64,000 nucleotides of DNA from Actinomycetota bacterium (GTDB lineage Bacteria; Actinomycetota; Acidimicrobiia; Spongiisociales; ZC4RG35): assembly GCA_052390035.1 (NCBI GenBank), contig JBQTHI010000044.1, positions 6,797-70,796 on the forward strand, given 5' to 3'. Both the position numbers and the translations under genes were made by a program. The notes beneath the pieces were generated by a model. The model saw only the letters and a list, made by a program, of their open reading frames with translations, did not search any database and was not told the origin of the DNA. Below are positions 10,779 to 46,870 of the stretch, piece by piece (positions within the stretch are counted from its first letter, which is position 1; every line of letters begins with the position of its first letter).

Positions 10779-10801
10779 GGCTGGCGCTCATCAGGTTGGA
10801 G

Positions 10802-24854: not shown

Positions 24855-24897
24855 CGCCGAACGGAGTCCCCGGGGACAGGCGGATAGCCTGATCAGG

Positions 24898-27030: not shown

Positions 27031-27968
27031 GCATCGCCACTCTGCAGGGGGTCGAGAAACGTTATGGGCCGGTCCATGCACTGGCTGGGGTCGATCTGGA
27101 GGTGCCCGAAGGATCGGTCTTTGGGTTGATCGGACCCAATGGAGCAGGCAAGACCACCTCGATGTTGCTGATCAGCACCCTCCTATCTCGGGATGCAGGA
27201 GACATGCAGGTATTGGGGGTCGACCCGCAGATTGACCCCCGCGGAGTGCGCCGCCAACTCGGTTACATGCCCGACTTCTTCGGTTTCTACGACCATCTGA
27301 CGGTGGTCGAATATCTCGACTTCTTCGGCGCGGCCTCCGGGGTGCCGGCCGCCAAACGCCCGGCGGTCATAGCCGACTTGCTCAGTCTTGTCGATCTCGA
27401 CGACCGGGCCGGTGCCGACGTCAACAGTTTGTCCCGAGGAATGAAACAACGCCTGTCACTCGCCCGAGCACTGGTCCACGACCCAGCACTGTTGGTTCTC
27501 GATGAGCCCGCTTCGGGCCTCGATCCCCGCGCCAGGGTCCACCTGCGGGAGTTGATCGCCGAGCTCTCCCGGATAGGAAAAACGGTGGTCATCTCCTCAC
27601 ATATCCTCTCCGAGCTGGAAGGCATCTGCACTCACATGGCGGTGGTCGACCAGGGCAAAGTCAAAGCGCAGGGAAACATCGACGAAATCCGTCGCACGAT
27701 GACAGCCAGCCGTCGGATCTCGGCACGGGTTCCCGACGAGCAGGTCGACGGGACCGCCGAGCTGATCGGGGGTCAGCCGTCAGTGAGCGAGGTCGAGGTG
27801 GAGCGGGGTTTGGTGCGCTTCGTCTTGTCCGGCGACGAGTCCGACTCGGCTCGCCTGCTGGCCGTGGTGGTCGCCGGCGGATGGAGGGTCGCCGATTGGC
27901 GCATGGAGGTAGCCGGTCTCGAGGAGCTCTTTTTGCAAATCACCTCCGAAGAGAGTCCCTCCTCATGA
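27027..27968 (+). CDS. ABC transporter ATP-binding protein
   Basis: Walker A GPNGAGKTT, the signature LSRGMKQRLSLARAL and Walker B LLVLDEP are present. Confidence 0.85.
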   Translation: MSIATLQGVEKRYGPVHALAGVDLEVPEGSVFGLIGPNGAGKTTSMLLISTLLSRDAGDMQVLGVDPQIDPRGVRRQLGYMPDFFGFYDHLTVVEYLDFFGAASGVPAAKRPAVIADLLSLVDLDDRAGADVNSLSRGMKQRLSLARALVHDPALLVLDEPASGLDPRARVHLRELIAELSRIGKTVVISSHILSELEGICTHMAVVDQGKVKAQGNIDEIRRTMTASRRISARVPDEQVDGTAELIGGQPSVSEVEVERGLVRFVLSGDESDSARLLAVVVAGGWRVADWRMEVAGLEELFLQITSEESPSS

Positions 27969-28981
27969 TGAATCCGGTCTTGAGGCGGGAACTACTCGAA
28001 CGATTCCGGACCCGCCGGGCCGCCTGGTTCATGTTCGCTTGGACCCTTGGCATCGGTCTGGTGGGGTACGTCACCTACCTGGTCAGCCAACAGTTTGCCA
28101 ACGGCAACTTTGGGATGGGCCGTCTGATCGCCACCGGGTTCATGGGCCGTTTCTTGTTCCAGGGGATGATGATGCTGATGATGAGCGCCGTGATCATGGT
28201 GGTCCCTGGAGTCACGGCCCTGGCCATCGTTTCGGAAAGAGAAAGACAGACCCTTCCGCTGCTCCAGGTCACTCAGCTCTCCAATTACCAGCTGGTGCTG
28301 GGCAAGCTGAGCTCGTCGATGTCCTATTTCCTGCTGTTGCTTTTGGCGGTCGCCCCGGTGATGGCACTGCCGCTGTTGTTTGGGGGGATGAGCTTGCTTG
28401 ATGTGTTGGCGGCCCTGGCCATCATGGTGGCGACGGCGGTCATGCTCGGGAGCGTGGCCTTGGCGATCTCCTCGCGGGCAAAGTCAAGTCGTGGAGCCGT
28501 AGCCGGGAGTTATGGCTTCGCTTTCATCATCGCCTTCTTCACGATCGCCGTGCTGCTCGCCGAGTTTCTGATCGTGCGGCCGGCTGGCGGGGCGCTGGTG
28601 CCACCCCGAGGCCGCGAGGTGTACAGCTCGTGGCTGAACCCCTACGTCGCCATGGTTGATGCCGTCGAGGCGCCCCTGGCGGTGAGCACTGCGTTTCTTC
28701 CCACCCCTTTTGCCCCGATCGACGCCCTGCTCTATGCCCGCCAGGGAGTATCCGGGGGGTTCGGGTTCGGAGGGTTCTTCGGAGGTGAGATCGGCGGCAA
28801 TTTGATAGTCGATGACTCGGGCCGGCAATTGATCCGCATGCGGCGAGGGCCAGTTTGGCTGCGCACTCTGATCATCTACGCGGCCATCAGTGCGTTGGCA
28901 TTGATGCGCGCCGCTCGGGTGTTGCGGGCGCCGGCTACGGCCGCGTTCCGTCTGCGGAGGAGCCGAAGTGTGGCGGCCTGA
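27965..28981 (+). CDS. ABC-2 family permease (NosY/COG1277-like)
   Basis: The start overlaps the upstream stop (ATGATG). It has 6 TM segments and the SERERQTLPLL motif typical of ABC-2 'multi-copper enzyme maturation' permeases. Confidence 0.7.
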   Translation: MMNPVLRRELLERFRTRRAAWFMFAWTLGIGLVGYVTYLVSQQFANGNFGMGRLIATGFMGRFLFQGMMMLMMSAVIMVVPGVTALAIVSERERQTLPLLQVTQLSNYQLVLGKLSSSMSYFLLLLLAVAPVMALPLLFGGMSLLDVLAALAIMVATAVMLGSVALAISSRAKSSRGAVAGSYGFAFIIAFFTIAVLLAEFLIVRPAGGALVPPRGREVYSSWLNPYVAMVDAVEAPLAVSTAFLPTPFAPIDALLYARQGVSGGFGFGGFFGGEIGGNLIVDDSGRQLIRMRRGPVWLRTLIIYAAISALALMRAARVLRAPATAAFRLRRSRSVAA

Positions 28982-30566: not shown

Positions 30567-30622
30567 ACCCAGATGAGTAGACCCAGATGAGTAGACCCGA
30601 ATGAGTACACCCAGATGAATTC
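30567..30622 (+). repeat. four tandem copies of a 14-bp repeat (ACCCAGATGAGTAG) bridging the upstream stop codon and the moxR start codon
   Basis: Copies sit at 30567, 30581, 30595 (ACCCGAATGAGTAC) and 30609 (ACCCAGATGAATTC). The moxR ATG (30615) lies inside copy 4. Each copy carries an ATG. Confidence 0.8.
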
Positions 30623-31583
30623 ACCAGAGGAGTTCGCCCGTTCTCTCAACGCCGCTCGGGCCGAGATCGGCAAAGTCATCGTCGGCCAGAAGGATCTCGT
30701 CGACACCGTTCTCACCGCCGCGTTGTGCGAAGGCCATGTCCTACTGGAAGGTGTGCCTGGCCTCGGGAAGACCAAACTCCTGGCGACGCTGGGCCGAGTT
30801 TTGGACGTCGAGTTCGGGCGGGTTCAATTCACCCCTGATCTCATGCCTGCCGACATCCTCGGCACCAAGGTTTTGACCGGAAACGACTTCAAGTTCCACG
30901 AAGGTCCGATCTTTGCCAACCTGGTGTTGGCCGACGAAATCAATCGGGCAACTCCCAAGACCCAGTCGGCCCTGCTCGAAGCAATGCAGGAGCGGAGAGT
31001 GACCCTGGGAGGGGAGACCCACGCTCTCCCCCGACCCTTCCTGGTGATGGCGACTCAGAATCCGATCGAGCAGGAAGGCACCTACCCACTCCCCGAGGCT
31101 CAACTCGACCGGTTCCTTTTCAAGGCGCTCGTGAGCTTCCCGCCAGCCGACGACGTGGTTGAGATTCTCCGCCGCACCACCGCCGGCCACGAAGCCCAAC
31201 CCGATCCGGTGATCGATGGGGCAGCGATCATCGCCATGTCGGAGTTCGTGAGGAGCCTCCCCGCCGGGACCCACCTACTTGCCTACGCCGCCACCCTGGT
31301 CGAGGCAACCCACCCGGAAAGTGCCAAGGCTCCGGAAATGGTGCGGCGTTATGTCAGGTTCGGCGCCAGCCCCCGCGGCGCCCAGGCATTGGTCATGGGC
31401 GGGAAGGCCTTCGCCTTGATCGACGGCCGGCCCAACCTCGCCGCCGAAGACATATGGCGGGTGGCCCCGATGGCGCTCCGGCATCGACTGGTGCTCGGCT
31501 ACGAGGCGCTCGCCGACGGGATCAAAGCCGACGAGATCGTCACCGAGGTCCTCGGCGCTTATCCCGCTCCGATTGCCCGTTAG
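30615..31583 (+). CDS. MoxR-family AAA+ ATPase
   Basis: Walker A GVPGLGKT, Walker B LADEINRA and the MoxR N-terminal EIGKVIVGQ motif are present. Confidence 0.85.
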   Translation: MNSPEEFARSLNAARAEIGKVIVGQKDLVDTVLTAALCEGHVLLEGVPGLGKTKLLATLGRVLDVEFGRVQFTPDLMPADILGTKVLTGNDFKFHEGPIFANLVLADEINRATPKTQSALLEAMQERRVTLGGETHALPRPFLVMATQNPIEQEGTYPLPEAQLDRFLFKALVSFPPADDVVEILRRTTAGHEAQPDPVIDGAAIIAMSEFVRSLPAGTHLLAYAATLVEATHPESAKAPEMVRRYVRFGASPRGAQALVMGGKAFALIDGRPNLAAEDIWRVAPMALRHRLVLGYEALADGIKADEIVTEVLGAYPAPIAR

Positions 31584-32453
31584 ATGCTGCTCTCGGCGGA
31601 GTTACGGGGCCGTCTGGAGCGCCTCTCGATCACCACCCGCCGACGGGTCATAGCCCAGTGGGCCGGTCGGCACTCCTCCCGGCACAAAGGCGAGAGCCTT
31701 GACTTCGCCGACTCTCGGGCATATGTGCCCGGTGATGACTTCCGGAGGATCGACCACAACCTCTGGGCCAGGCTCGGCGTTCTTCTGGTTCGTCAATACC
31801 AGGCCGAGGAGGAGCTACCGCTTCGTCTGGTGATCGACACCTCGACCTCAATGGCGTTCTATCGCAAGCTCGAAACAGCCCGCACCCTGTCCGCCATGAT
31901 CGTGTACCTGGGTCTGGCCGGGGGGGACAGGGTCCAGTTGTTCGCCGTGCCAGGGCCCGACGATCTCGCCATGGAGGCGGGCCCGAGTGGCCGCCACCTT
32001 TCCCGCTGGCCGCAACTGGAAGCATGGATCGAGGGCCGCTCACCAACCGGGTCCGGCCCGATGGCGCCGTCTTTGCGACGGCTTGCGGGTGAAGGTCCCA
32101 ACCGCGGCTCGATAGTGCTCGTCTCCGATCTCCTGACCGCCGATTGGCAGCCGGCGCTCGACGGTCTGGGCCTTGGCACCGGAGGAGTGGTGCTCCATGT
32201 CCTCGGCGAAGAGGAAATCGACCCTTCGATTGCAGGCGATGTCCGTCTGGCCGATTCGGAGACCGGATCCGAGTTGGCGGTGTCCACCTCCGAAGAGGCG
32301 ATGCGACGTTATAGAACAGCGTTGGAGCAGTTCGCCTCCGAGGCTGGCCAACGCGCCAAGCGAGCCGGGCTTGATTACGTGTTGGTGCCGGCCCGAGATG
32401 ACGCTCCCGAGCAGGTGCTGGCCGCGCTCGCCCGAAGCGAGGCGGTGGCATGA
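31584..32453 (+). CDS. DUF58 domain protein (MoxR partner)
   Basis: The ATG abuts the moxR TAG. The motif DFADSRAYVPGDDFRRIDHN is typical of DUF58. Confidence 0.75.
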   Translation: MLLSAELRGRLERLSITTRRRVIAQWAGRHSSRHKGESLDFADSRAYVPGDDFRRIDHNLWARLGVLLVRQYQAEEELPLRLVIDTSTSMAFYRKLETARTLSAMIVYLGLAGGDRVQLFAVPGPDDLAMEAGPSGRHLSRWPQLEAWIEGRSPTGSGPMAPSLRRLAGEGPNRGSIVLVSDLLTADWQPALDGLGLGTGGVVLHVLGEEEIDPSIAGDVRLADSETGSELAVSTSEEAMRRYRTALEQFASEAGQRAKRAGLDYVLVPARDDAPEQVLAALARSEAVA

Positions 32454-32469
32454 CTCGGCGGCTCGGGCT

Positions 32470-34278
32470 GTGAGCTTCCTCATACCCACCGCCTTGGGTC
32501 TGGCGGCTCTGGCCGGGCCCCTCATCGTCCTATACATGCTCCGATCCCGACGACCACGCATCGAAGTGGCAAGCACCATGTTGTGGGAGAAGGTCGAGGT
32601 CCCGGTGTCCTCGGCCGTCCCGTGGCAAAAGCTGAAAATGACACCGCTTCTCATTCTCCAGCTGTTGGTGCTCGCCGGTTTCGTGCTCACCCTGGCCCGG
32701 CCGTTCTACACCCAGGCGACATTGCTCGGCCCCCACACCGTGTTTGTGTTCGACACCTCGGGCTCGATGGCGATGGCCGATCGCCTGGAAAAAGCTGTAT
32801 CCAACTCCCGCCGGCTGCTCACCGACCTCTCTTCTGACAACCAGGTATCGATCATCAACGCCGGGCCGGTGCCGAGAGTGTTGGTCGCTTTCGCCCGTGA
32901 CCCCGAACTGGTCGAAACCGGCCTCGACTCCCTCGTGCCAACCGGCGGGCGTGCTGACCTGTCGGGTGCCATCCGCCTCGCCCGCGGTCTGGCCACCCCC
33001 GACCACCCCACCAACATCCTCATCTTCTCCGATGGGGGCGACGCCGTGCTTCCCGAAGAGCCCGTGGTGGGGGCCGAGCTGATCCTCTTTGACGACTTCG
33101 GCCCAAATCTGGCGATCACCTCCTGGTCGCTGGAACCGTCGACCGAAGGTACCACCAGGGCCTTTCTGCAAGTCGCCAATTTCTCGACCGAAGAGCGCAC
33201 CGTCAGGGCGGAGGTAGCCGTCAACGGCCTGGCCGCCGGTCTGCTTGATCTGGACGTACCCGCTCAGGGGAACGCTCGGCGGACCACCCCGATCGACGCC
33301 GGTGCCGGGGACGTGGTTTCGGTCTCGCTGGTCGGCAACGAGGATTCCCTTCCGCTTGATGATCGGGCCGATCTGTTGGTGGGTGGCGGACCGGATCGGG
33401 AGGTGACATTGAGCGGTGAGGGATCACCGTTCCTCGAAGCATTGATCGATGCAGTTCCCGGATTCTCGACGAATACCGCCAACGACGGTGGCGACCTTCA
33501 GGTCATCGATCGCGGGGATCAATATGACATCGACCGGCCAACCTGGCTCATTGCCCCGACCACCCCCCCTGAGGGGGTCACCTTGATTGAATTCGTTCGG
33601 AACACGGCGGTGACCTATCAGCGGCCCGGTGAGCCGATTCTCGATTCGGTCGACCTATCACAGATGGCTGTGGCAGAGGCTCAGGTGGTGGATGCCCCCC
33701 GCTGGCTGACTCTGGTCAGGGCGGGCGAAGTGCCCCTGATCCTGCTGGGGGAGGTGAGCGGACACCGCGTGGCGTATTTCACTTTTGATCTGACTCATTC
33801 CAACCTGCCCATCCAAATCGGGTTTCCGATTTTGGGCGCTCGTCTGCTCGATTGGCTGGCAGGCGGTAGTGCAGGAGCCGTCCTAACCGAACCTGCCGGC
33901 AGCCCGATCCAGTTGACCGCCGCCCCCGGCTCCACCATTTTCGTAACCACGCCCAACGGGGAGCGCAGACAACTCGCCGAGGGCGCTACGTCATTTGTGG
34001 ATACGGGAGCACCCGGCGTCTATCGAGTGGCATCAGTTGACGCCGACGGCGCCGTAAGTGAAGGTCCCTCCGCGGTGCGCACCTTCGTCGCTGAAGAATC
34101 GGCGGGAAGCTCCCGGCTGATCACCACCACCGGAGCCGCCACCGAGACCGAAGAGCCATCGGTGCTGATCAGGGAGTGGGCTCCTTGGGTCATTTCCGTG
34201 GTGGTGGTGTTGATGGCCATCGAGTGGTGGGTTGGCCACCAGCGGCCCTTCTTACCTCGCCGGCGGGTCACCGCATGA
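32470..34278 (+). CDS. BatA-like membrane protein with vWA domain
   Basis: GTG 32470 gives MSFLIPTALGLAALAGPLIVLYMLRSRRP (aerotolerance-regulator N-terminal TM). The vWA MIDAS-like motif is VFDTSGSM. A C-terminal TM is present. Confidence 0.65.
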   Translation: MSFLIPTALGLAALAGPLIVLYMLRSRRPRIEVASTMLWEKVEVPVSSAVPWQKLKMTPLLILQLLVLAGFVLTLARPFYTQATLLGPHTVFVFDTSGSMAMADRLEKAVSNSRRLLTDLSSDNQVSIINAGPVPRVLVAFARDPELVETGLDSLVPTGGRADLSGAIRLARGLATPDHPTNILIFSDGGDAVLPEEPVVGAELILFDDFGPNLAITSWSLEPSTEGTTRAFLQVANFSTEERTVRAEVAVNGLAAGLLDLDVPAQGNARRTTPIDAGAGDVVSVSLVGNEDSLPLDDRADLLVGGGPDREVTLSGEGSPFLEALIDAVPGFSTNTANDGGDLQVIDRGDQYDIDRPTWLIAPTTPPEGVTLIEFVRNTAVTYQRPGEPILDSVDLSQMAVAEAQVVDAPRWLTLVRAGEVPLILLGEVSGHRVAYFTFDLTHSNLPIQIGFPILGARLLDWLAGGSAGAVLTEPAGSPIQLTAAPGSTIFVTTPNGERRQLAEGATSFVDTGAPGVYRVASVDADGAVSEGPSAVRTFVAEESAGSSRLITTTGAATETEEPSVLIREWAPWVISVVVVLMAIEWWVGHQRPFLPRRRVTA

Positions 34279-36974
34279 GGTTCGCCCATCCCTGGTGGTT
34301 GGTGGCCATACCCCCCGTTCTGGGGCTGACCTGGCTAGTCGCCCGGCGCGGGGGACGAGCGGTTTCACGGCGTCAACATCGGTGGGCGCTCGGGATTCGC
34401 CTTGGCGGGTTGCTGCTCTTGGTCACTGCCGCCGCCCAACCGATCGTCACCAGATCGGTGGACGATCGTGCGGTCCTGTTTCTGCTTGATCGGTCTGCTT
34501 CGGTATCGGATTCGGCCCGCGCCGCGCAGGAGGCTTTCCTGAGTGCGGCGCTGGCCGAAGGCAGAGCCGATGGGCGGACCGCGGTGGCGGTGTTTGGCCG
34601 CGACAGTCGACTCGACTCGGCGTTCACCGTTGACAGGTCCGGAGGCCCGATCAGGACGATCCCTGACGACTCGGCGACCGACATCGCTTCGGCCCTGCAA
34701 GCCGCCGCTTCGTTGATGCCCTCGGAGGGTTCACGGCGCATCGTCCTCCTCACCGATCTGGTCCCCACTACGGGCGACGTCGGCCCGGCGATCCGTCAGC
34801 TGGCAGAACAAGGCGTGGCGGTGGATGTCGTCGAGCTGGCGTCCGCTCGAACCCCCGATGCCCTGGTCGAATCGGTGATCCTGCCTCCAGCAGTGCGCGA
34901 GGGTGACACCGTGCCGGTTACGGCGGTGATTCGCTCCAATCAGGCAGGGTCGGCCGTGGTGGCGGTGAGATCCGGCGATGGTGACGAGCAGCGGATTCCC
35001 GTCCAGGTGGTGGCTGGGCGCAACGAGGTATCGCTCGAAGTCAACGCGGTGGGAGTCGGGTTCCTCCCGGTTTCGATCCAGGTCGAAACGGAGTTCGATA
35101 CGAGACCGGAGAACAATCGGGCGGAGGGGATCACCCGAATTCTCGGCCCTGCCCGAGTGGCGGTGGTGGAGGGAGTCGCCGGAGAGGCCGAGGCGCTGGG
35201 TGAGGCGCTCGTCGCCGGAGGAATCGAGGCCGACCTTCGGCGTTCGATCCCCACGGAGGGGGAGCTGCTCAGCTATGACGCGGTCGTCCTGGTGAATGTC
35301 GATCAGCCGGGACTGGTGGAATCGGAGAACCTCTCGGCGTTTGTTGAAGATCTCGGGCGTGGACTGGTGGTTGTTGGTGGCGACCGGGCTTTTGGGCTTG
35401 GTGACTACCACGAGACGCCGCTTGAGGCGGTGCTTCCCGTGAGTTCGAATCCGGACGACCTGGTGAGGCGTCAGCCGGTGGCGGAGGTGCTGGTCATCGA
35501 CTCCTCCGGGTCGATGGGTGCCTGTCACTGCAACATGGGCCAGGCCGCCGAAGGTGGGGTGGTGAAAACCGATATCGCCAAGGCCGGAGCGGAGCTCGCC
35601 ATCAACGCCCTCACCGACGATGATCGGGTTGGTGTGCTGGCGTTCTCATCAGGCACGGACTGGGTGATTCCCCTGGCGCCCCGCTCAACCATCACCGACC
35701 CGGCGGGGGCTCTCGGGGTGATCACTCCCAATGGTGACACCGAGATCTCCAACGCCCTTGAGGTGGCGCTTGACGAGCTGGCCGGCGCTCCCGAGCAGCT
35801 CCGCCACATCGTCCTCTTTACCGACGGGTGGGATCCGAGCGATGCTGCCCTATTGCCAATGGCGCGGGAAATCGCCGATGCCGGAGTGACTCTTTCGGTG
35901 TTGGGCACCGGGGAGGGTCCGGGCACGACTCTGAGCCGGATGGCCGAGCTGGGCGGCGGACGTTTTTACGCCGGCACGGACCTGGAGGCGGTTCCGGAGG
36001 TCTTCGTCGAGGAGACTTTGATCGTTGCCCGCAATCTGGCCGTCGAGGGGACCTTCTTTCCGATCCTCGCTGCCCCATCTCCCGTCACCCAGGATCTGAC
36101 CGCCTCCCCACCCCTGCTCGGTTATGTGCTGACCAAGGCCAAAGGAAGTGCTTCGCTCCTGATGGAGATCGGGCAGGCCGACCCGCTTCTTGCCACCTGG
36201 CAGCGCGGGCTGGGGCGGGCCACCGTCTGGACGTCGGATGCCACCGTCCGGTGGTCGAGCCAGTGGGTGGACTGGGAGGAGTATGCGGACTTCTGGGGTC
36301 GTTTGGTAAGAGACGTGTTGCCAGCGGGGCGGGAGAATCCGCCAGCCGTTCACGTCGAAGACGGCCGGCTGGTCATTTCCTACCAACAGCAGGGCACCGA
36401 CCTCGACGCCTCCGCCTCGGCCCGGGTTCGCCGGCCCGACGGCGAGGTAATCGAAGTCCCCATGGACCGGGTGAGCGGCTCCGATTTCTCCGCCCGGGTA
36501 GCCCTGGGCCCGGCCGGCGCCTATTGGGTCGCCGTCACCGTTGACAATCCCGATGGCTCGCAGATTGTTTCCGGAGCAGGGGCAGTTTCCGCCTATGAAG
36601 AGGAGTTCGCCTTCCGCGAGCCGGATCCGGCGTTGGGGGCCGCCATCACGACGATCACCGGCGGGAGGCTCAACCCCGGACCAGCAACCGTGTTCGATCC
36701 GGCCCCCGTGCGGGGACGGGCCGAAGTTTCCTTCTGGCCGTGGTTGGCCGCCGCCGCTCTGGCTCTCTTCCTCCTCGACGTGGCCTTGAGCCGGCTGCTG
36801 CTCGGGGAGGGTGACGCCCAGGCCTGGCGGGAAGGGCTGACTTCAACCGGCCGTGGCAGGGAGAGGCGGCGGGTGGCGCGGGCAGTTGAAGAGGCCACGA
36901 CCAGTCGGGAGGCACCGCCGGTTCTCTCCGACTCGGAGACCCTCGAACGCCTGATGCGCCGTAAACGACGATGA
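34275..36974 (+). CDS. large membrane protein with two vWA domains and a class-I glutamine-amidotransferase-like domain
   Basis: The ATG overlaps the upstream stop (ATGA). There are two DxSxS-type vWA motifs (LLDRSASVSD; VIDSSGSMG), a GATase1-like segment, and a C-terminal TM plus Arg-rich tail. Confidence 0.6.
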   Translation: MRFAHPWWLVAIPPVLGLTWLVARRGGRAVSRRQHRWALGIRLGGLLLLVTAAAQPIVTRSVDDRAVLFLLDRSASVSDSARAAQEAFLSAALAEGRADGRTAVAVFGRDSRLDSAFTVDRSGGPIRTIPDDSATDIASALQAAASLMPSEGSRRIVLLTDLVPTTGDVGPAIRQLAEQGVAVDVVELASARTPDALVESVILPPAVREGDTVPVTAVIRSNQAGSAVVAVRSGDGDEQRIPVQVVAGRNEVSLEVNAVGVGFLPVSIQVETEFDTRPENNRAEGITRILGPARVAVVEGVAGEAEALGEALVAGGIEADLRRSIPTEGELLSYDAVVLVNVDQPGLVESENLSAFVEDLGRGLVVVGGDRAFGLGDYHETPLEAVLPVSSNPDDLVRRQPVAEVLVIDSSGSMGACHCNMGQAAEGGVVKTDIAKAGAELAINALTDDDRVGVLAFSSGTDWVIPLAPRSTITDPAGALGVITPNGDTEISNALEVALDELAGAPEQLRHIVLFTDGWDPSDAALLPMAREIADAGVTLSVLGTGEGPGTTLSRMAELGGGRFYAGTDLEAVPEVFVEETLIVARNLAVEGTFFPILAAPSPVTQDLTASPPLLGYVLTKAKGSASLLMEIGQADPLLATWQRGLGRATVWTSDATVRWSSQWVDWEEYADFWGRLVRDVLPAGRENPPAVHVEDGRLVISYQQQGTDLDASASARVRRPDGEVIEVPMDRVSGSDFSARVALGPAGAYWVAVTVDNPDGSQIVSGAGAVSAYEEEFAFREPDPALGAAITTITGGRLNPGPATVFDPAPVRGRAEVSFWPWLAAAALALFLLDVALSRLLLGEGDAQAWREGLTSTGRGRERRRVARAVEEATTSREAPPVLSDSETLERLMRRKRR

Positions 36975-38181: not shown

Positions 38182-39018
38182 ATGTCGACCCACGTCGAAG
38201 AAAGACGCCGTCTCAGCGCCTGGCCTTTGATCGTCAACTCGATCTTCGCCTCCACGTTTGGCATCTTCATGGCGATGTTGATCGACTCACTGGGCCGGGC
38301 CATCCTCGCTCTCGTGCTCGAGCAGGGTCCGGTCGTCTTTCACGACCGGGTGGAGCTCGCCGGTGACAACCCCGTGACCCTGGCGGGTGGCGCCATAGCT
38401 GCCCTCGTTGCCGGAGGCCTTTTCCTCGCCGTATATCCGGGCAGTACCCGCCACGACGCCTCTCGTCTGGCGGTGCTTTGGCTGATCCTGCATTGCCTGC
38501 GGCAGGGATTTGTCCCCCTGGCCCTCGCGGCGGTTGACGCCGATTCCGATGTTGCAGTTGCCCTCGCCACCTTCGAGCTCCCCTCGGGAATCAATACCGT
38601 GGTGGGGGCGGCCGGAGCGATCGGCCTGCTGCTGGTCTCGCTGGCTGCCGCCCCGGCATTTCTTGCTTTTTCCACCACCCGGCGGGAGATCAGCACCCCA
38701 ACCCGGCGGGTTGCCTACGTCGCCAGGATCGGCCTCCTCCCCGGCCTGGTCAGCGGATTGCTGGCCGCGGTTGGATTCTTCGTCTTGAATTCGGACAGCG
38801 GCCTGGTCACAACTTTGCCCTTCTTTGGCGCTTTCACCATCGCCACCCTCCTCGCCGCTCCGGGAACGCGTACCGTCCAAGCGGATCAGAGCGCCACCAC
38901 CCAGAAGTTCTCGTGGGGACTCTTGCTCGCGGTGGCAGTCATCTTCTCGCTCTTCTATTACGCCCTGGCGCGAGGCATCCCGATCCCCCCCGACCCGGAC
39001 GGCTTCTTCGCGACATGA
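38182..39018 (+). CDS. hypothetical polytopic membrane protein
   Basis: 278 aa with about 7 hydrophobic helices and no recognisable motif. It is the first gene of a tightly spaced six-gene plus-strand run. Confidence 0.45.
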   Translation: MSTHVEERRRLSAWPLIVNSIFASTFGIFMAMLIDSLGRAILALVLEQGPVVFHDRVELAGDNPVTLAGGAIAALVAGGLFLAVYPGSTRHDASRLAVLWLILHCLRQGFVPLALAAVDADSDVAVALATFELPSGINTVVGAAGAIGLLLVSLAAAPAFLAFSTTRREISTPTRRVAYVARIGLLPGLVSGLLAAVGFFVLNSDSGLVTTLPFFGAFTIATLLAAPGTRTVQADQSATTQKFSWGLLLAVAVIFSLFYYALARGIPIPPDPDGFFAT

Positions 39019-39043: not shown

Positions 39044-39553
39044 ATGATTGGGGCCGCCGTCCTCACCATCTCCGATGGCGTCGCCGCCGGTGAGCGACAG
39101 GACATCTCGGGAGACTTGCTGGCGGGTCTGCTCCAAGCCGATGGTTTTGAAGTCGTCCAACGGAGGATCGTTGCCGACGACCGCCGCCTGATAGCTGCCG
39201 GCTTGACGGAGCTTTGTGGTCAAGCTCGCCTCGTGGTGACCACCGGTGGCACCGGCCTCGGCCCCCGCGACGTCACGCCCGAAGCAACCCGTGACGTGAT
39301 TGATCGGGAGGCTCCCGGGATCGCCCAGCTAATGATGGCGGCGGGACTGGCCGCCACTCCCTTGGCTTCGCTCTCCCGGGCGGTGGTGGGCACCCTGGGC
39401 GAGGCTCTGGTCGTGAACCTCCCCGGTAACCCACGAGCCGTGGAAGAAGCGCTGGCGGCGATCGCCCCGGTCCTCCGTCACGCCCTCGACCTGATCGCCG
39501 GTGATACGGCGCACGGACCGCAAACCCAGGGTTCCAGCCAACGATATCGTTAG
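39044..39553 (+). CDS. mog: molybdopterin adenylyltransferase / molybdenum cofactor biosynthesis protein MogA/MoaB
   Basis: The motifs TGGTGLGPRDVTPEA and GNP are present. The start is trimmed to ATG 39044. Confidence 0.7.
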   Translation: MIGAAVLTISDGVAAGERQDISGDLLAGLLQADGFEVVQRRIVADDRRLIAAGLTELCGQARLVVTTGGTGLGPRDVTPEATRDVIDREAPGIAQLMMAAGLAATPLASLSRAVVGTLGEALVVNLPGNPRAVEEALAAIAPVLRHALDLIAGDTAHGPQTQGSSQRYR

Positions 39554-39597: not shown

Positions 39598-40650
39598 GTG
39601 GCCGCCGACGATCCGCAGATCTTTGCTGCCATCTCTGACTGGACCGATCGGGGGGTGGCCTTTGCCCTGGCTACGGTGATCGGGGTGCGCGGCTCCACGT
39701 ACCGAGGCCTGGCCGCTCGCCAGCTGATGGCAGCCGACGGCACCTCGGTAGGTACCGTTTCGGGTGGCTGCCTTGATCAGGATCTGACCCTCGTTGTTGG
39801 GAAGGTGTTGGCGACCGGCCAGCCGACCAAGATCGAGTTCGACCTCACCGCCGACGACGAAGCAGTGTGGGGGTGGGGCATCGGTTGCAACGGCGCCACC
39901 GAACTGCTGGTCGAACCGGCCGACGGTGCCCGTCGGCTCGTCGAGGCCGTGGAGTCTCATCCCGCCGCCGTCCTCCACGTCTTAAGCGGGGAACACCTTG
40001 GTGAACATTGGTCGCTACCGGCCGCCGATCCCGCCTGGGGTGAGCTGGTGGCGGCGGCCCACGCCGACGGACGGAACCGACGGGTCACCATCGACGAGGT
40101 CGACTACCTCCTAGAGATCGTCGCCCGCAAGCCCCGACTGGTCGTCTGCGGCGCTGGTCATGACGCCGTGCCGCTGGTGAGCCTCGGCTCCGAGCTTGGA
40201 TTCGAGGTGACGGTGGTCGACGACCGTCGCGCCTTCCTGACGCGGGAGCGATTTCCACACGCCGCCGCGCTGGTCCATTGCGCTCCCTCCGAGCTGGCCG
40301 CCCACGTCCCCATCGACCCGGCTACCTCGGTGGTGGTCATGTCCCACAACTATGTGCGGGATGTCGACTTCATCGGTTCGCTGCTTGGACGGCGGGCGGG
40401 ATACATAGGCTGCCTGGGCCCTGGAGAGAGACTCGAGCGGATATTGAAGGACCTCGAAGCATCGGCTCGGGTGATATCCCCCGAAGATCGCCAACACCTC
40501 CATGGTCCCGCCGGGCTCGACCTCGGCGCCGACGGCCCGGTGGAGATCGCCTGGTCGGTGCTCTCCGAGATCCTCGCGGTTCGCCGGCACAGGCAAGGCG
40601 GTTTTCTGGTCGACAAGAAAGGGCCTGCCGGCCTGAGGCGGATACCGTAA
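39598..40650 (+). CDS. xdhC: XdhC/CoxI family molybdoenzyme maturation factor
   Basis: The architecture is XdhC N-terminal domain plus Rossmann domain (LVVCGAGHDAVPL). Confidence 0.7.
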   Translation: MAADDPQIFAAISDWTDRGVAFALATVIGVRGSTYRGLAARQLMAADGTSVGTVSGGCLDQDLTLVVGKVLATGQPTKIEFDLTADDEAVWGWGIGCNGATELLVEPADGARRLVEAVESHPAAVLHVLSGEHLGEHWSLPAADPAWGELVAAAHADGRNRRVTIDEVDYLLEIVARKPRLVVCGAGHDAVPLVSLGSELGFEVTVVDDRRAFLTRERFPHAAALVHCAPSELAAHVPIDPATSVVVMSHNYVRDVDFIGSLLGRRAGYIGCLGPGERLERILKDLEASARVISPEDRQHLHGPAGLDLGADGPVEIAWSVLSEILAVRRHRQGGFLVDKKGPAGLRRIP

Positions 40651-40664
40651 CCAGAGGAGGCACG

Positions 40665-41216
40665 GTGGAAATTTCAGAGGAGTTCGAGGTGGCTCGGACC
40701 GTCGCGGCGGTATGGGACATCTTTCAGGACGTACCGGCGGTCGCTCAATGCCTCCCCGGTGCAACCCTCACCGAGGACAAAGGTGGCAATGTCTACGCCG
40801 GCAATGTTTCGGTCAAACTCGGGCCGATAGCCACCACCTTCGAAGGAGAGGCGGTCATCACGCCCGATGAGGCCAGCCGCCGGGCTTTGATAGATGGCAA
40901 GGGGGTTGATCGGCGCGGCGGTAGCCGAGGGCAGGTGAAGGTCACCTATGTGTTGACCCCCACCGACGGCGGAGGGACGAAGGTGGCGATCCGCGCGGAC
41001 GTCACCATCGCCGGGCCGGCGGCACAGTTCGGACGCACCGGTCTCATACAGGAGATGAGCCGGCGGCTAATCGCCGACTTTGTGAGCTGTCTGGAGGCCA
41101 AACTGGCGGCACCGACTGAGGACGCGGCCGCGGCCATCAAAGCCGAACTCAGGCCTCTGCGGCTCTTTTGGGCAAGTCTGCTGGCCTGGTTGAAGAGGCT
41201 CTTCGCCCGCAGATGA
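40665..41216 (+). CDS. coxG: CoxG-like SRPBCC protein (carbon monoxide dehydrogenase subunit G family)
   Basis: GTG 40665 follows a GGAGG RBS. The fold is SRPBCC/CoxG. The stop overlaps the next start (ATGA). Confidence 0.65.
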   Translation: MEISEEFEVARTVAAVWDIFQDVPAVAQCLPGATLTEDKGGNVYAGNVSVKLGPIATTFEGEAVITPDEASRRALIDGKGVDRRGGSRGQVKVTYVLTPTDGGGTKVAIRADVTIAGPAAQFGRTGLIQEMSRRLIADFVSCLEAKLAAPTEDAAAAIKAELRPLRLFWASLLAWLKRLFARR

Positions 41217-43186
41217 GGTCGCTCTTCGGCTGGCTGAGCGGCCATTGGCCGCCCCGCAGTTCGGTGTTGACTCTGCTCTTGTTGATGGCGGCCTGCGCCG
41301 GCGTGGGTGAACCGCCGCCCGAGTCGGCGGGCAATCGAACGGTCGTCGAGATGTTCGACAACACGTTCTCCTCATCAGAGATCCATATAAAGGTTGGGTC
41401 CGAACTGAGCTTCGTGGGTGCCGGGCGCAACCCACACAACGCGGTGGCGTCAGACGGCTCGTGGACGACCGAGTCGGTGTTTGGCTCCCTTGAGCAGCTG
41501 GCCGGGGAGGAGGCGGTCCTTTCCTTTGAGCGCCCTGGCGAATACGTGTTCTTTTGCACCTTTCATGGGACGGCCGAAGGGGTCGGGATGGCGGCCCGGC
41601 TGGTGGTCGGAGATGCCGGCGCTTCGCCCGCCGCCCAAGGGGTGTCTGATACCAAGGCTCCCGCCCAATGGTCGGGCAACACGCTTCGGGTGCCGGAAGA
41701 CCAGCCGACGATCCAGCAAGCCGTTGACATGGCACTACCAGGCGACCTGGTCCTCATCGGGGCCGGGCTATATCAAGAGGCGATCGAAGTGAACACGCCC
41801 GGTCTGGTCATCCGGGGAGTCGACCGCAATCGGGTAGTGATCGACGCCGGTAATCGAGCCGAGAACGTGATCGATGTCTACAGCGACGGAGTAGCCGTTG
41901 AGAACCTCACCGTCAAAAACGGCATCGCCAACGGCGTCTACTGGGGAGCGGTGAGAGGATACCGGGCTTCGTATGTCACCGCCATCGACAACGGCGACTA
42001 CGGAATTTACGCGTTCGACTCGTCGGATGGGCTCTTCGAATATTCCTACGCCTCGGGTTCACCCGACTCGGGTTTCTATATCGGCCAGTGCGATCCTTGC
42101 CAAGCGGTGATTGATCACGTCGTCTCCGAATGGAATGGGTTGGGCTACTCGGGCACCAATGCCTCCGGTGAGCTTTACATCATCAACAGCGTCTGGCGCT
42201 ACAACGCCGCCGGCATCGTCCCCAACACCCTCGACTCCGAGCTCCTCCCCCCGTTTCACGACGTCACCATCGCCGGGAATGTCATCCACGACAACAGCAA
42301 CCGGAAGGCTCCCGTCAAGTCTGCTCCGTGGTCGGGTTTGGGCAACGGGATCATTCTCGCCGGAGGAAACAGCTCGACCGTGATTCGCAATCTGGTCTTC
42401 AACCATGAGGTCAACGGGATCGCCGTCACTCCCAACCTCGATCGCAACTTCTGGCGGAGCGCCCACAACCGGATCGAAGGCAACGTCGTCGAGGGTTCGG
42501 GCCGCGCCGACCTGGCCCTCGCCGGGCCGGCCGGGCCAGGCAACTGCTTCACCGGGAATCGGGCGACATCTTCCTTCCCGGTAGGTCTTCAGGCTTTCGC
42601 CACCTGCGACGGGGTGCGGCTGCCCGTCCTCTATGAACTGGCCGGGTCGACCGAACAGCTTGGCCGCGTCATGGAGAACGGTCTCGGGCTTCGACCGGAT
42701 AATCCGGTTGGATCCGCCCCCAAGCCCGGACCTCAGGAGAACATGCCGGGCGGGGCCGATGCGCCGGTGAACCCGGCAGTAGACGTTTTCGAAAGCCATC
42801 CGGTAGATCTGGGGGGGATTGTGGTCCCGGAGATGCCCGAAAGACTCACCATCGACCAACCGAAAGGAATCACGGTGTTCGGGATGTTGCTTGGCTCGGT
42901 GACGTCGGTGTTCTTCGGCCTCTATGCCTACTTCTTGCCGTTTGTCCTCTGTGCGGCGTGGGTCACCATCGCCCTCTGGGACCTAGCAAGAAGTGGCCGC
43001 CGGCCAGCCGCCGCCATCGCATGGTCGGCGGCGATCCTTCTGATCCCCTTCGTCGGGGTGATCCTCTATTACATCCTGGGCCGCTCCGCCATCCCTCGAT
43101 GGCAGCGGACGGTGCTGCTCGCCGGCGGTATCGGGGCGTACTTGGTGATCCTCGCCGTTGGAGCTCTCATCGGTGGCGTCGTCTAG
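41213..43186 (+). CDS. lipoprotein with N-terminal cupredoxin domain, NosD-like right-handed parallel beta-helix (CASH) repeats and C-terminal double-TM anchor
   Basis: The lipobox is LLMAAC. Type-1 Cu ligand spacing is H...C-x2-H-x7-M (NPHNAV...FFCTFHGTAEGVGM). Repeated NGI/NxV beta-helix units resemble NosD. Two C-terminal TM helices are present. Confidence 0.65.
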   Translation: MRSLFGWLSGHWPPRSSVLTLLLLMAACAGVGEPPPESAGNRTVVEMFDNTFSSSEIHIKVGSELSFVGAGRNPHNAVASDGSWTTESVFGSLEQLAGEEAVLSFERPGEYVFFCTFHGTAEGVGMAARLVVGDAGASPAAQGVSDTKAPAQWSGNTLRVPEDQPTIQQAVDMALPGDLVLIGAGLYQEAIEVNTPGLVIRGVDRNRVVIDAGNRAENVIDVYSDGVAVENLTVKNGIANGVYWGAVRGYRASYVTAIDNGDYGIYAFDSSDGLFEYSYASGSPDSGFYIGQCDPCQAVIDHVVSEWNGLGYSGTNASGELYIINSVWRYNAAGIVPNTLDSELLPPFHDVTIAGNVIHDNSNRKAPVKSAPWSGLGNGIILAGGNSSTVIRNLVFNHEVNGIAVTPNLDRNFWRSAHNRIEGNVVEGSGRADLALAGPAGPGNCFTGNRATSSFPVGLQAFATCDGVRLPVLYELAGSTEQLGRVMENGLGLRPDNPVGSAPKPGPQENMPGGADAPVNPAVDVFESHPVDLGGIVVPEMPERLTIDQPKGITVFGMLLGSVTSVFFGLYAYFLPFVLCAAWVTIALWDLARSGRRPAAAIAWSAAILLIPFVGVILYYILGRSAIPRWQRTVLLAGGIGAYLVILAVGALIGGVV

Positions 43187-43210: not shown

Positions 43211-44425
43211 GTGTTGGCGAAGACCCAAATCAAGGCCCAGGCGAAGCTGGCAATAGAACCGGCGGAAGCCTTTCGCATGTTCACGAACTCGACCGCGGTG
43301 AGGGAGTGGCTGGCTGATGCCGCCATAATCGCCCCCAAACCGGGGGGGAGGGTGTTTCTCGGCTGGAACGACGGTTATCAGACGGCCGGGAACTTCAACC
43401 GATGGAATCCCCCGACGGCGCTCGGTTTCAGCTGGCGTGGGCCGGATGAGAAGCAGACCATCGTCAAAGTTGGCTTCGAAGCTGCCCCCGATGGCGGCAC
43501 TCTGGTTCGGGTCCGTCACACTGGCTTCGCCACCGGCAAGAGAGGAAGGTCGACCCGGCGGGCGCTGCAGTCGGCGTGGGAACGATCGCTCGAGAACCTG
43601 GCGTCCGTCGTGGGGAGCGGAGAAGATCTCCGGTTTACTCGCCGGCCGATGCTCGGGGTATTCGTCGATGACGTCGTGCGGGGAGACGGTGGCCGATCCA
43701 TTGGAGTCCGCCTGGGTGGGGTGGTCGAGGGAATGGGTGCAGCCGGTGCCGGTCTTCGCGGGGGCGATGTTGTCACCGCTCTGGGCGGAACGAAGATCGG
43801 TTCGTTCTCCGATCTGACGGCGGCCCTCACCCCTCATCGGGCCGGTGACACGGTCGAGGTGGCCTTGCTCCGCGACGGTCAGGACCAGCGGGTCGCCATG
43901 ACGCTTTCGGGTCGTCCAATTGGCGATCTCAAGACAACCGCTTCCGACTTGACTGCCCAGGTGGCGGATATGTCTCGACATTTCGGCGACTCCCTCGATG
44001 AAGTGCTGGCGGGGGTCACCAACGAAGAAGCCGAGTTTCGGCCCGGTGCGGGGGAGTGGTCGGTCAAAGAGGTGATGGCTCATCTGATCGACGGCGAGGG
44101 AGATCAGCACTCCTACCTGGCTGAGGCCTTCGAAGGTGGCGAGCGATATCACGACCTGGTTCTCGGCAACTCGCACTGGCGGACGGCGGTCACCGCGGCG
44201 TCTTACCCGGACCCGGCGACGATGCTGGCAAGCTACCGACGGTTGATGGCGCAGACCGTTGAGCTGCTGCGGGCAATGCCGGAGGATCTGGAGCACCGGC
44301 GAGGGACCTTTTGGCGCTTCGCCTTCGGCTTCGCCGACGGCGAATCGCATCACAACCAGCATGTCGATCAGATTCGAGCCGCGCTCGAGGCCGCCCGCAG
44401 GGGATCTAACCCTGAACAGGGGTAG
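43211..44425 (+). CDS. three-domain fusion: SRPBCC (AHSA1-like) - PDZ - DinB/YfiT-like
   Basis: The N-terminus is an Aha1-like SRPBCC fold. The mid-section is PDZ-like (GVRLGGVVEGMGAAGAGLRGGDVVTALGG). The C-terminal DinB_2-like His motifs are HLIDGE...HHNQH. Confidence 0.55.
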   Translation: MLAKTQIKAQAKLAIEPAEAFRMFTNSTAVREWLADAAIIAPKPGGRVFLGWNDGYQTAGNFNRWNPPTALGFSWRGPDEKQTIVKVGFEAAPDGGTLVRVRHTGFATGKRGRSTRRALQSAWERSLENLASVVGSGEDLRFTRRPMLGVFVDDVVRGDGGRSIGVRLGGVVEGMGAAGAGLRGGDVVTALGGTKIGSFSDLTAALTPHRAGDTVEVALLRDGQDQRVAMTLSGRPIGDLKTTASDLTAQVADMSRHFGDSLDEVLAGVTNEEAEFRPGAGEWSVKEVMAHLIDGEGDQHSYLAEAFEGGERYHDLVLGNSHWRTAVTAASYPDPATMLASYRRLMAQTVELLRAMPEDLEHRRGTFWRFAFGFADGESHHNQHVDQIRAALEAARRGSNPEQG

Positions 44426-45220: not shown

Positions 45221-46870
45221 CTAGTTGACGGTGACCGACACCACCGCCGTGTCACATGCCCCGTCGACGTCACAAACCTGATATGTGAAATTGACCATTC
45301 CGGAGAAGTTGGGAGGGGCGGAATAACGGATTCGGCCGTTACCGAAGACGACCGCCGATCCGACCGAGGGGGCATCCACAATTGACAGCGAGCTAGCGAC
45401 GATTGGCCCCGAGTCGTTTGCCAATACGCCGATGTTGACCTTCTCGTTCGGTCGGGTGAAGGCTGAGTCGTCCAAGGCCGCCAGTGTGCCGGGGATGGTG
45501 GTGGTCGTGGTGGTGGTGGTGGTGGGCAGGGTCGTGGTGGTGGTGGTGGTGGTCGTTGAGGTGAGGGGTCCGCTGGTGGTCGTGGTGGGCCCCGCCGGGA
45601 GCGTCGTGCTTGCGCTGGTAGTGGTGGATGAGGTCGGCGTTGGCGTCGCCGGTCCCGAGCCGGTCGGTACTTCCGAGAGCCCCGTTCCTCCCGGCCTCCC
45701 GCCCGCACTCGCCGTGGGTTGTCCCTCGGCGAGTTGTTCGATTCGGGCGCGGACCGGTTGGTGGACGAGGTCAATTGCCGGGAGGAGGTTGGCGGAGCCG
45801 GCGGTGGCGGTGATGAGGCCGGCGGCGATCACCGTCGCCACATCGCGACCGAGGACCTCCAATGGACGGAGCAGAGGAAGATCGGCGAGGGCGGCCAGCG
45901 GTCCGGTCGACCACCGCAACCGCCCGAGGGCGATGTTCATGAGGGCGCGGACGACTCGTGGGTCGAATTGTGCGCCGGCGTGGCGGGCCACTTCGGCGCG
46001 AGCATCGGCGTGACTCATCTTGGTTTTGTACGAACGGCCGGTGACCATCACGTCATAGGCATCGGCCACCGCAACGATGCGGGCTCCAAGGGCAATGTCT
46101 TCGCCGGCAAGGCCGTGGGGGTAGCCGGAGCCGTCCCACCTTTCGTGGTGATGTTCGATGGTGGTCGCCCACGGTCCGAGCCAGCCCACGATCGGAGCGA
46201 TGAGGCGCATCCCCTCGAGGGGATGGCGATGAATCTGCTTCCACTCCTCGGCGTCGAGGGAGGATGGCTTGTTGAGGATCTCGGCCGGCACCTCCAGCTT
46301 GCCGATGTCGTGAAGTAAAGCTGCCCAGCGCAGTCGATCGCGAGCCTCGTCTCCGAGTCTCATCTCCTCCGCCAGCAGATCGGTGTAGGCGCGGGTTCTC
46401 TCCGAGTGTCCCCGGGTCCGACGGTCGTGCTGGGAGAGGGAGGCGGCGAGAGTGAGGATCAGCTCGGCGGCTTCGGCGATGTCCTGCTTACCAGCGGCGG
46501 TGGCCGCCTCCAGTCGAGCCCGAAGCTGGTTGACGCCGCCGGCGCGATGGGCGACACGGTAGCGGGGGGGAGCCTTGTCGGGAAACGCCAAGGTCAGCTT
46601 CAAAAGGGCGGACAGCGGTATGAGGCGCCTGGTGAACGTTTCGGTGATGTGGGCGGCGAGGCCGGCCGTGGCGATGACCACCGTCCACCACAGCACGATG
46701 GCCATCGGCTCCTGGGGCGATTCCATGAGGCTCGCCGCGACACCACCGGCGAAATACCCGGCGACGATCGGGATGGCAAACGCCGCCAGCCGCACCACCG
46801 TGGCGATTCCCCGACGAGAGCGCCATTGGTGGGCGGATCGCTCCTTTGACCGCGGCCTACGACCCTTCAC
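45221..46870 (-). CDS. membrane HD-GYP phosphodiesterase with C-terminal Thr/Pro-rich linker and Ig-like (VCBS/cadherin-like) domain
   Basis: The start is GTG. Two N-terminal TM helices precede the HD (HDIGK) and GYP (HHERWDGSGYPHGL) motifs. A third hydrophobic helix follows, then a poly-Thr linker and the C-terminal NFTYQVCDVDGACDTAVVSVTV motif. Confidence 0.7.
   Translation of the reverse strand: MKGRRPRSKERSAHQWRSRRGIATVVRLAAFAIPIVAGYFAGGVAASLMESPQEPMAIVLWWTVVIATAGLAAHITETFTRRLIPLSALLKLTLAFPDKAPPRYRVAHRAGGVNQLRARLEAATAAGKQDIAEAAELILTLAASLSQHDRRTRGHSERTRAYTDLLAEEMRLGDEARDRLRWAALLHDIGKLEVPAEILNKPSSLDAEEWKQIHRHPLEGMRLIAPIVGWLGPWATTIEHHHERWDGSGYPHGLAGEDIALGARIVAVADAYDVMVTGRSYKTKMSHADARAEVARHAGAQFDPRVVRALMNIALGRLRWSTGPLAALADLPLLRPLEVLGRDVATVIAAGLITATAGSANLLPAIDLVHQPVRARIEQLAEGQPTASAGGRPGGTGLSEVPTGSGPATPTPTSSTTTSASTTLPAGPTTTTSGPLTSTTTTTTTTTLPTTTTTTTTTIPGTLAALDDSAFTRPNEKVNIGVLANDSGPIVASSLSIVDAPSVGSAVVFGNGRIRYSAPPNFSGMVNFTYQVCDVDGACDTAVVSVTVN
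45495..45640. repeat. (GGT/ACC)n-rich trinucleotide repeat tract encoding the poly-Thr linker
   Basis: The plus strand reads ggtggtggtcgtggtggtggtggtgg... Confidence 0.7.

Follow-up and report, generated by a model that had tools for sequence, protein, structure and literature searches.

The gene at positions 41213 to 43186 of the 64,000-nucleotide stretch analysed here (the window), which belongs to contig JBQTHI010000044.1 of an Actinomycetota metagenome-assembled genome (MAG), encodes a 657-residue predicted lipoprotein in which a cupredoxin, a right-handed parallel beta-helix and a C-terminal membrane domain are joined in one chain, and the family to which it belongs shows near-obligate genetic coupling to a two-domain multicopper oxidase that bears a twin-arginine translocation (Tat) signal. 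The domains are all of known types; it is their combination, and the pairing with the oxidase, that is new. We tentatively favour the view, to which we give somewhat less than an even chance, that the cupredoxin exchanges electrons with the oxidase and that the beta-helix and membrane domain together form a membrane platform for the pair. The features of the gene and its product are as follows.

41213..43186, + strand: whole gene, a 657-amino-acid lipoprotein open reading frame (ORF) with cupredoxin, beta-helix and membrane domain (ORF list, translation, Pfam)
41213..41296, + strand: predicted lipoprotein signal peptide, residues 1-28, with lipobox LLLLMAAC and Cys28 (sequence)
41333..41611, + strand: type-1 copper cupredoxin domain, residues 41-133 (Pfam, profile, Foldseek)
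41435-41437, 41555-41557, 41564-41566 and 41588-41590, + strand: predicted copper ligands H75, C115, H118 and M126, respectively
41681..42622, + strand: right-handed parallel beta-helix of about 10 rungs, residues 157-470
42089..42100, + strand: C293-D-P-C296 motif in a beta-helix turn (alignment)
42545-42607, + strand: second conserved cysteine pair, C445/C465
42623..42865, + strand: proline-rich extended segment plus helix 477-490, residues 471-551, joining the beta-helix to the membrane domain
42866..43183, + strand: membrane domain, residues 552-657 (Pfam, hydropathy, AlphaFold2 model)
42962-43084, + strand: PLDc_N match, residues 584-624 (Pfam)

More than 4000 database proteins match the protein, and a survey taking one genome per species turned up relatives in at least 561 species-level genomes, mostly MAGs of Acidimicrobiia and Nitriliruptoria, so that the architecture, described in the original prediction as unusual, is indeed unstudied but is by no means rare. 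The genome-locus counts given below refer to the best 80 loci of these at least 561 genomes; they come from the same two groups, apart from a few that are labelled Caldilineaceae, Acidobacteriota or Gemmatimonadaceae, and all are from MAGs. In the related loci L001, L002 and L004 the next gene downstream encodes a protein of 311-373 amino acids with Cu-oxidase_3 and Cu-oxidase_2 domains. Its top NCBIfam match is to NirK, at a score far under the cutoff (about 84 against 296). Alignment of 52 copies revealed invariant H203, H206, H208, H242-C243-H244, H251, H331, H333, H378 and H380, which provide the full set of eight trinuclear-cluster histidines and a type-1 site (Cys243, His251) in domain 1, the axial residue being leucine in 49 of the 52. 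On the strength of the eight histidines and the position of the type-1 site, the protein is a type-C two-domain multicopper oxidase and not a nitrite reductase. An RR (Tat-like) motif is likewise present in 49/52 copies, from which export to the same compartment as the lipoprotein would follow.

Of the 69 genome loci that could be assessed, 50 have the oxidase gene immediately downstream, at a median distance of about 27 nucleotides; seven further loci are truncated by the end of a contig. The linkage was also examined in reverse, starting from the oxidase in independent metagenome contigs that extend at least 700 nucleotides upstream for scoring of the beta-helix, or at least 2200 nucleotides for scoring of both domains: the beta-helix gene was found upstream of the oxidase in 56/58 loci, and beta-helix and cupredoxin together in 35/36. 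The linkage is asymmetric, in that the oxidase almost never occurs without the beta-helix gene, while the beta-helix gene does occur without the oxidase. The pairing persists in lineages such as Nitriliruptoria and Caldilineaceae where the CoxG/MogA synteny described below is missing.

Separately, it was observed that an unannotated 284-amino-acid protein without a Pfam match, and with no obvious signal peptide or membrane segment, is encoded just downstream of the oxidase in 16 loci (L040:9090-9944 and 15 others).

In roughly 27-28 of the best 80 loci (about one third) the cupredoxin is encoded as a separate ORF of 94-173 amino acids, whose stop codon usually overlaps or abuts the start of the gene for a lipoprotein of about 549 amino acids that comprises only the beta-helix and membrane parts. 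In these split forms each product typically has a lipobox of its own (25/27 for the cupredoxin, 29/30 for the beta-helix-membrane gene). The occurrence of the cupredoxin either fused or as a separate adjacent gene is a Rosetta-stone pattern, and implies that the two parts work together; all parts of the protein are under strong purifying selection. The earlier suggestion of a role at the membrane surface, either in transferring electrons or in handling copper, thus receives independent support, both from the oxidase linkage and from the fused and split states of the cupredoxin.

The ORF runs on the + strand from an ATG at 41213 to a TAG at 43184-43186 (657 codons), and the ATG shares an ATGA overlap with the TGA stop codon of an upstream CoxG-like gene. 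A TTG at 41168 was considered as an alternative start codon and was ruled out, since the N-termini of homologues fit the ATG at 41213, which itself overlaps the upstream stop. NCBI lists an identical protein (P0001), from an Actinomycetota MAG, as a 'right-handed parallel beta-helix repeat-containing protein', and relatives are named 'plastocyanin' by the Joint Genome Institute (JGI). Pfam recognises four domains, every one of them over its gathering score. The signal sequence, RSS-VLTLLLLMAA-C28, ends in a lipobox whose cysteine is kept in 54/54 aligned homologues that have an N-terminus, and the protein is accordingly classed as a predicted bacterial lipoprotein.

An AlphaFold2 model built on 63 homologues has a mean predicted local distance difference test (pLDDT) score of 89.1 and a predicted template modelling score (pTM) of 0.79. 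It comprises a signal helix (residues 14-28), a disordered linker (29-39), a beta-sandwich (42-132), about 30 short strands making up some 10 rungs of beta-helix (157-447), and C-terminal helices. The original prediction had taken the absence of either the cupredoxin sandwich or the beta-helix as grounds for abandoning its domain assignment, and the model predicts both; the claim of more than eight rungs is likewise borne out. The lipobox it quoted, LLLLMAAC, is present at residues 21-28, and the beta-helix strings and both hydrophobic stretches it cited are all found at the expected residues.

Evidence for the cupredoxin is consistent across methods. Pfam Copper-bind (PF00127) matches residues 51-132 (E 3.8e-7, 30.9 bits against a cutoff of 21.2), the family profile matches PDB chains of amicyanin and plastocyanin (E 7e-10 to 2e-9; amicyanin 6.7e-10), and Foldseek aligns the domain with plastocyanins 1pcs and 1bxu at template modelling (TM) scores of 0.72-0.77 and 26-28% identity. 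The ligand motifs singled out previously, NPHNAV (residues 73-78) and FFCTFH...GVGM (113-126), do supply all four type-1 positions in the order His...Cys-x2-His...Met, and the four residues are conserved in 57/57 homologues carrying the domain. In plastocyanin and amicyanin this ligand set constitutes an electron-transfer site. The domain therefore shares with the PF00127 cupredoxins, among which are membrane-tethered and enzyme-fused forms, both the beta-sandwich fold and the canonical ligand order, and it probably binds copper. It differs from them in being part of a 657-residue lipoprotein, where plastocyanin and amicyanin are soluble carriers of about 100 amino acids, and in the C-x2-H-x7-M motif, whose His-to-Met spacing exceeds that of the aligned plastocyanin 1bxu. 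Its scores against the NCBIfam equivalog models for plastocyanin, amicyanin and pseudoazurin (26.9, 22.3 and 15.6, against cutoffs of 87.85, 110.2 and 109.85, respectively) do not indicate orthology to any of the three.

The beta-helix gives a clear match to Pfam Beta_helix (E 3.7e-11), and its top NCBIfam match is TIGR03805, 'beta_helix_1' (E 1.4e-21, residues 167-407), although at 76.9 bits against a cutoff of 141.5 it falls outside that family. In Proteobacteria the TIGR03805 family has as its partner a CxxCH protein, TIGR03806, a pairing that the present association of a beta-helix with redox proteins would echo. The original prediction had likened the domain to NosD, and the likeness proves to be one of fold only. 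The predicted right-handed parallel beta-helix does resemble solved NosD, yet the nearest solved folds are alginate epimerases, AlgE4 being closer than NosD. The Pfam NosD match (PF05048, residues 194-423) is marginal (E 6.9e-6, 26.1 bits against 23.6); the NCBIfam NosD model TIGR04247 aligns only to residues 167-237 and scores 36.6 bits against a cutoff of 300; and no nosF, nosY, nosL or nosZ was found beside the gene or in related loci. Two cysteine pairs, C293-x-P-C296 and C445/C465, are kept in 63/63 family members; among 146 representatives at greater distance the CxPC cysteines are retained in 138 and 141 (about 95%), and invariant Asp, Glu, Tyr and Arg residues occupy successive rungs between residues 263 and 343.

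These features bear on a different account, in which the beta-helix, perhaps through its CxPC motif, acts as a NosD-like metallochaperone or assembly platform that takes up Cu(I) at the membrane surface and loads it into the apo form of the Tat-exported multicopper oxidase, and perhaps into further cuproenzymes. It would parallel the copper route NosL to NosD to NosZ, which is the accepted model for that system (bioRxiv 10.64898/2025.12.16.694761), but would operate without an ABC (ATP-binding cassette) transporter; a further precedent for an operon-encoded maturation factor is cutF, which serves the multicopper oxidase CutO (PMC8456105). Beyond these precedents, the NosD-like fold and the invariance of CxPC are what such a chaperone would lead one to expect, and the asymmetric linkage (the oxidase accompanied by the gene in 56/58 loci, the gene also found alone) fits a required accessory factor. 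Like the present protein, NosD (PDB 7o0y) is encoded in the company of an exported multi-copper enzyme. The two nevertheless have only 17% sequence identity, and NosD is held at the membrane by NosY where the present protein relies on a lipid and membrane helices of its own. Unlike NosD of the NosDFY(L) assembly machinery, the protein has neither an ABC ATPase or permease nor NosL or NosZ encoded beside it. Relatives are instead partnered by a two-domain multicopper oxidase, and the beta-helix is itself fused to a type-1 copper domain. The complete type-1 copper site favours electron transfer over chaperoning, the failure of the NCBIfam NosD model and the lack of adjacent nosF, nosY and nosL tell against a NosD-type mechanism, and a search of the PDB with the beta-helix profile (E up to 10) retrieved no NosD chain. 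The CxPC motif, too, is kept equally well in beta-helix-only paralogues that lack any copper context, and may be a structural disulfide. On balance we regard the chaperone account as unlikely, though it is the main rival to electron transfer.

The same fold comparisons raise the question of whether the beta-helix might instead be a carbohydrate-active enzyme, namely an epimerase, lyase or hydrolase that is tethered at the membrane and has a polysaccharide of the cell envelope as its substrate, with the copper domain as an accessory. The best fold matches and the invariant Asp, Glu, Tyr and Arg of rungs 263-343 are in keeping with this, as is an S-layer homology (SLH) domain protein elsewhere in the window, which points to a polymer-bearing envelope. 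Against it, the beta-helix-only profile matched nothing in the PDB beyond a generic pectinesterase N-terminal cap motif (E 1.6e-4), and no epimerase or polysaccharide lyase chain was retrieved at E up to 10. The mannuronan C5-epimerase A-modules (AlgE4, PDB 2pyg) and polysaccharide lyases thus have no detectable sequence relationship to the domain, and the polysaccharide gene context is missing: the conserved neighbourhood contains neither glycosyltransferase nor polysaccharide export genes. The near-obligate pairing with cupredoxin and multicopper oxidase would also be left unexplained, and we consider an enzymatic role of this kind improbable.

More distant members of the beta-helix family help to define the limits of the copper association. 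A HMMER search of 1.8 billion representatives with the beta-helix and membrane part yielded 324 clusters at E ≤ 1e-30, and the distant relatives include many exported beta-helix-only proteins of about 400-470 amino acids, some of them fused to PD40 propellers. Three beta-helix-only paralogues of about 420 amino acids, in which CxPC is kept, were inspected in their loci (L086:6001-7997, L087:6001-8090 and L088:6001-8071, from the cultured Demequina aurantiaca and two MAGs). The next gene in all three encodes an unannotated lipoprotein of about 250 amino acids, and overlaps the paralogue stop codon in two of them. The idea that the whole beta-helix family is redox-linked was rejected, as these three loci have no copper genes nearby; the copper association is a property of the subfamily to which the window protein belongs, not of the beta-helix family as a whole. 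A giant surface protein with SdrD_B/CLIPPER repeats adjoins the paralogue in 2/3 of these loci.

Between the beta-helix and the membrane lies a linker with invariant or near-invariant prolines (P503, P505, P512, P521 and P539). Despite its mostly non-regular structure it is modelled at pLDDT 88-98 and is ordered to about residue 550, and a related motif closes the beta-helix-only paralogues. In the Nitriliruptoraceae loci L072-L079, L081 and L083 (for example L075:6001-8372) the matches to the membrane domain and the beta-helix are several hundred nucleotides further apart than in the window, and these members may therefore have roughly 100-200 additional residues inserted between the two domains.

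The original prediction envisaged a two-helix C-terminal anchor. A membrane anchor is indeed present, but the model has three helices, 555-593 (39 residues), 598-622 and 629-656, and the hydropathy profile shows 3-4 hydrophobic segments, allowing three or four transmembrane spans; each such arrangement places one loop with three arginines outside. The N-terminal half of the first helix is of low confidence (pLDDT only 56 over residues 551-570). Pfam PLDc_N (PF13396; E 1.6e-9, 38.0 bits against a cutoff of 23.3) covers the end of helix 555-593 together with helix 598-622. The hairpin has the W-D..R and P..G...Y features in common with the PLDc_N domains of cardiolipin synthases and of small actinobacterial proteins, and differs in lying at the C-terminus of an exported protein that lacks a phospholipase D (PLD) catalytic domain: no PLDc catalytic match was found in the protein, and cardiolipin synthase models match the hairpin only. 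A further difference is the third helix that follows it, which is conserved and glycine-rich and was not listed in the original prediction. The invariance of D590, W604, P612, G615, Y619 and R632 implies that the domain is more than a greasy anchor. Anchoring at both ends, as had been proposed, is the conserved state of the family in both alignment and model, and the protein is probably exported and held in the membrane in this manner.

Taken with the oxidase linkage, these properties are the basis of the electron-transfer reading that we favour. The protein would sit at the outer face of the cytoplasmic membrane, held by its N-terminal lipid and its C-terminal three-helix domain. Its cupredoxin would carry single electrons and exchange them with the oxidase at the type-1 copper of the latter, the flow being probably towards the oxidase, which would then reduce O2; the beta-helix and membrane domain would dock the two partners and position them at the membrane. 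From what is established for multicopper oxidases, transfer in this direction would be thermodynamically natural for a type-1 site with an axial leucine.

Several results weigh against this reading. No reductant for the cupredoxin was identified, and no site for a redox cofactor can be recognised in the membrane domain. The invariant polar residues and CxPC motif of the beta-helix suggest that it has an activity of its own, beyond that of a platform, and the beta-helix-only paralogues are linked to neither oxidase nor cupredoxin. In the window itself no oxidase gene was found within the 64 kb (tblastn, E up to 1e-3), and the closest relatives, in loci L003, L005-L013 and L018, also lack an adjacent oxidase, so that for the window gene the partner is hypothetical. 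No remnant oxidase pseudogene was found downstream of the gene. The window protein, which is the reference of the family alignment, nonetheless has the full domain order and every invariant residue. It is a typical member, without an adjacent oxidase, of this conserved family of Actinomycetota, and its conservation implies either a partner encoded elsewhere or a role independent of the oxidase. It is also conceivable, though again unlikely, and about as probable as the chaperone account, that both functions are combined in a hitherto unrecognised three-part exoplasmic copper oxidase system of Actinomycetota, in which the beta-helix is required for assembly or metallation of the oxidase and the fused cupredoxin feeds it electrons.

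The genes flanking the window gene, all on the + strand, are as follows.

38182-39018, + strand: unannotated 278-amino-acid protein with hydrophobic stretches and no Pfam or NCBIfam match
39080-39553, + strand: MogA/MoaB-like gene (Pfam)
39598-40650, + strand: XdhC gene (Pfam)
40662..41216, + strand: CoxG-like (SRPBCC) gene (Pfam COXG, E 2e-20), whose stop codon overlaps the ATG of the lipoprotein gene
43211-44425, + strand: unusual fusion of AHSA1/SRPBCC, PDZ and DinB/mycothiol-transferase-like parts, at the position occupied by the oxidase gene in relatives

The overlap of the CoxG stop with the lipoprotein ATG suggests co-transcription, and the upstream block as a whole is probably co-transcribed with the lipoprotein gene. 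This, together with the recurrence of the 278-amino-acid protein, MogA and CoxG upstream of the gene in 36/65 assessable genome loci, might be taken to mean that the lipoprotein belongs with CoxG, XdhC and MogA to a module for maturation and membrane recruitment of a molybdenum enzyme of the CO dehydrogenase type. Such a module is, however, very improbable. Many lineages with the oxidase pairing lack the synteny, XdhC occurs in just 13/65 loci, and no CoxL, CoxM or CoxS was seen among the genes scanned near the lipoprotein gene or in related loci. CoxG has no signal peptide at the start codon used, whereas the lipoprotein is exported; CoxG, XdhC and MogA act in the cytoplasm. The upstream block is lineage-specific synteny and not the core of the system, and all-against-all clustering of ORFs from 85 loci otherwise revealed only lineage-specific synteny (JAB, ThiF-rhodanese, AceE, pirin and GNAT). 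The tail of the CoxG-like protein is amphipathic and hydrophobic (LRLFWASLLAWLKRLF).

In the literature searched, no publication was found on the family, on its architecture or on its pairing with an oxidase, and no description was found of a beta-helix and cupredoxin partner for such an enzyme. Two-domain multicopper oxidases are widespread, and their physiological electron donors, and the means by which they acquire four copper atoms after Tat export, are mostly unknown. Accessory genes of a small multicopper oxidase are found in comparable fashion in ncgABC-nirK of Nitrosomonas. In cutF-cutO-cutG of Rhodobacter (PMC8456105) an exported multicopper oxidase is likewise encoded with small redox or maturation proteins. 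The accessory proteins of both systems are unrelated to the present protein in sequence and in fold. The linkage reported here identifies a near-obligate genetic partner for one large subfamily of two-domain multicopper oxidases, and offers a testable hypothesis for the supply of electrons or copper to such oxidases in monoderm Actinomycetota. It would carry the NosD-type beta-helix outside the field of denitrification and, if the assembly reading is true, would represent the first NosD-type assembly device outside nitrous oxide (N2O) reductase, and one that dispenses with an ABC transporter. It also provides a context for hundreds of database entries whose sole label is 'right-handed parallel beta-helix repeat-containing protein' or 'plastocyanin'.

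The nearest genes for an ABC pair lie about 12 kb upstream of the lipoprotein gene (27027-28981) and were not seen in related loci. They belong to an overlapping three-gene transporter-like unit at 24799-28981 (+), which is opened by a 743-amino-acid ORF with no Pfam match even at E 0.01 and continues with two genes.

27027-27968, + strand: ABC ATPase, in the overlapping unit after the 743-amino-acid ORF
27881-28981, + strand: ABC-2 family permease of the ABC2_membrane_2 type

Elsewhere in the window, the SLH-domain protein mentioned above is encoded at 10796-12535 (+; E 4e-22), a hint that the envelope of this Actinomycetota bacterium is polymer-bearing. At 30615-36974 (+) there is a Bat/MoxR-type cluster comprising a MoxR AAA ATPase, BatA/VWA proteins and a 932-amino-acid VWA and GATase1-like protein, which is syntenic with the lipoprotein region in several relatives. 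Finally, the gene at 45221-46870 (-) encodes an HD_5 (HD-GYP-like) protein that also has a C-terminal Big_9/cadherin-like domain and a long low-complexity linker rich in Thr and Pro; the HD_5 and Big_9/cadherin-like parts are two separate genes in L002.

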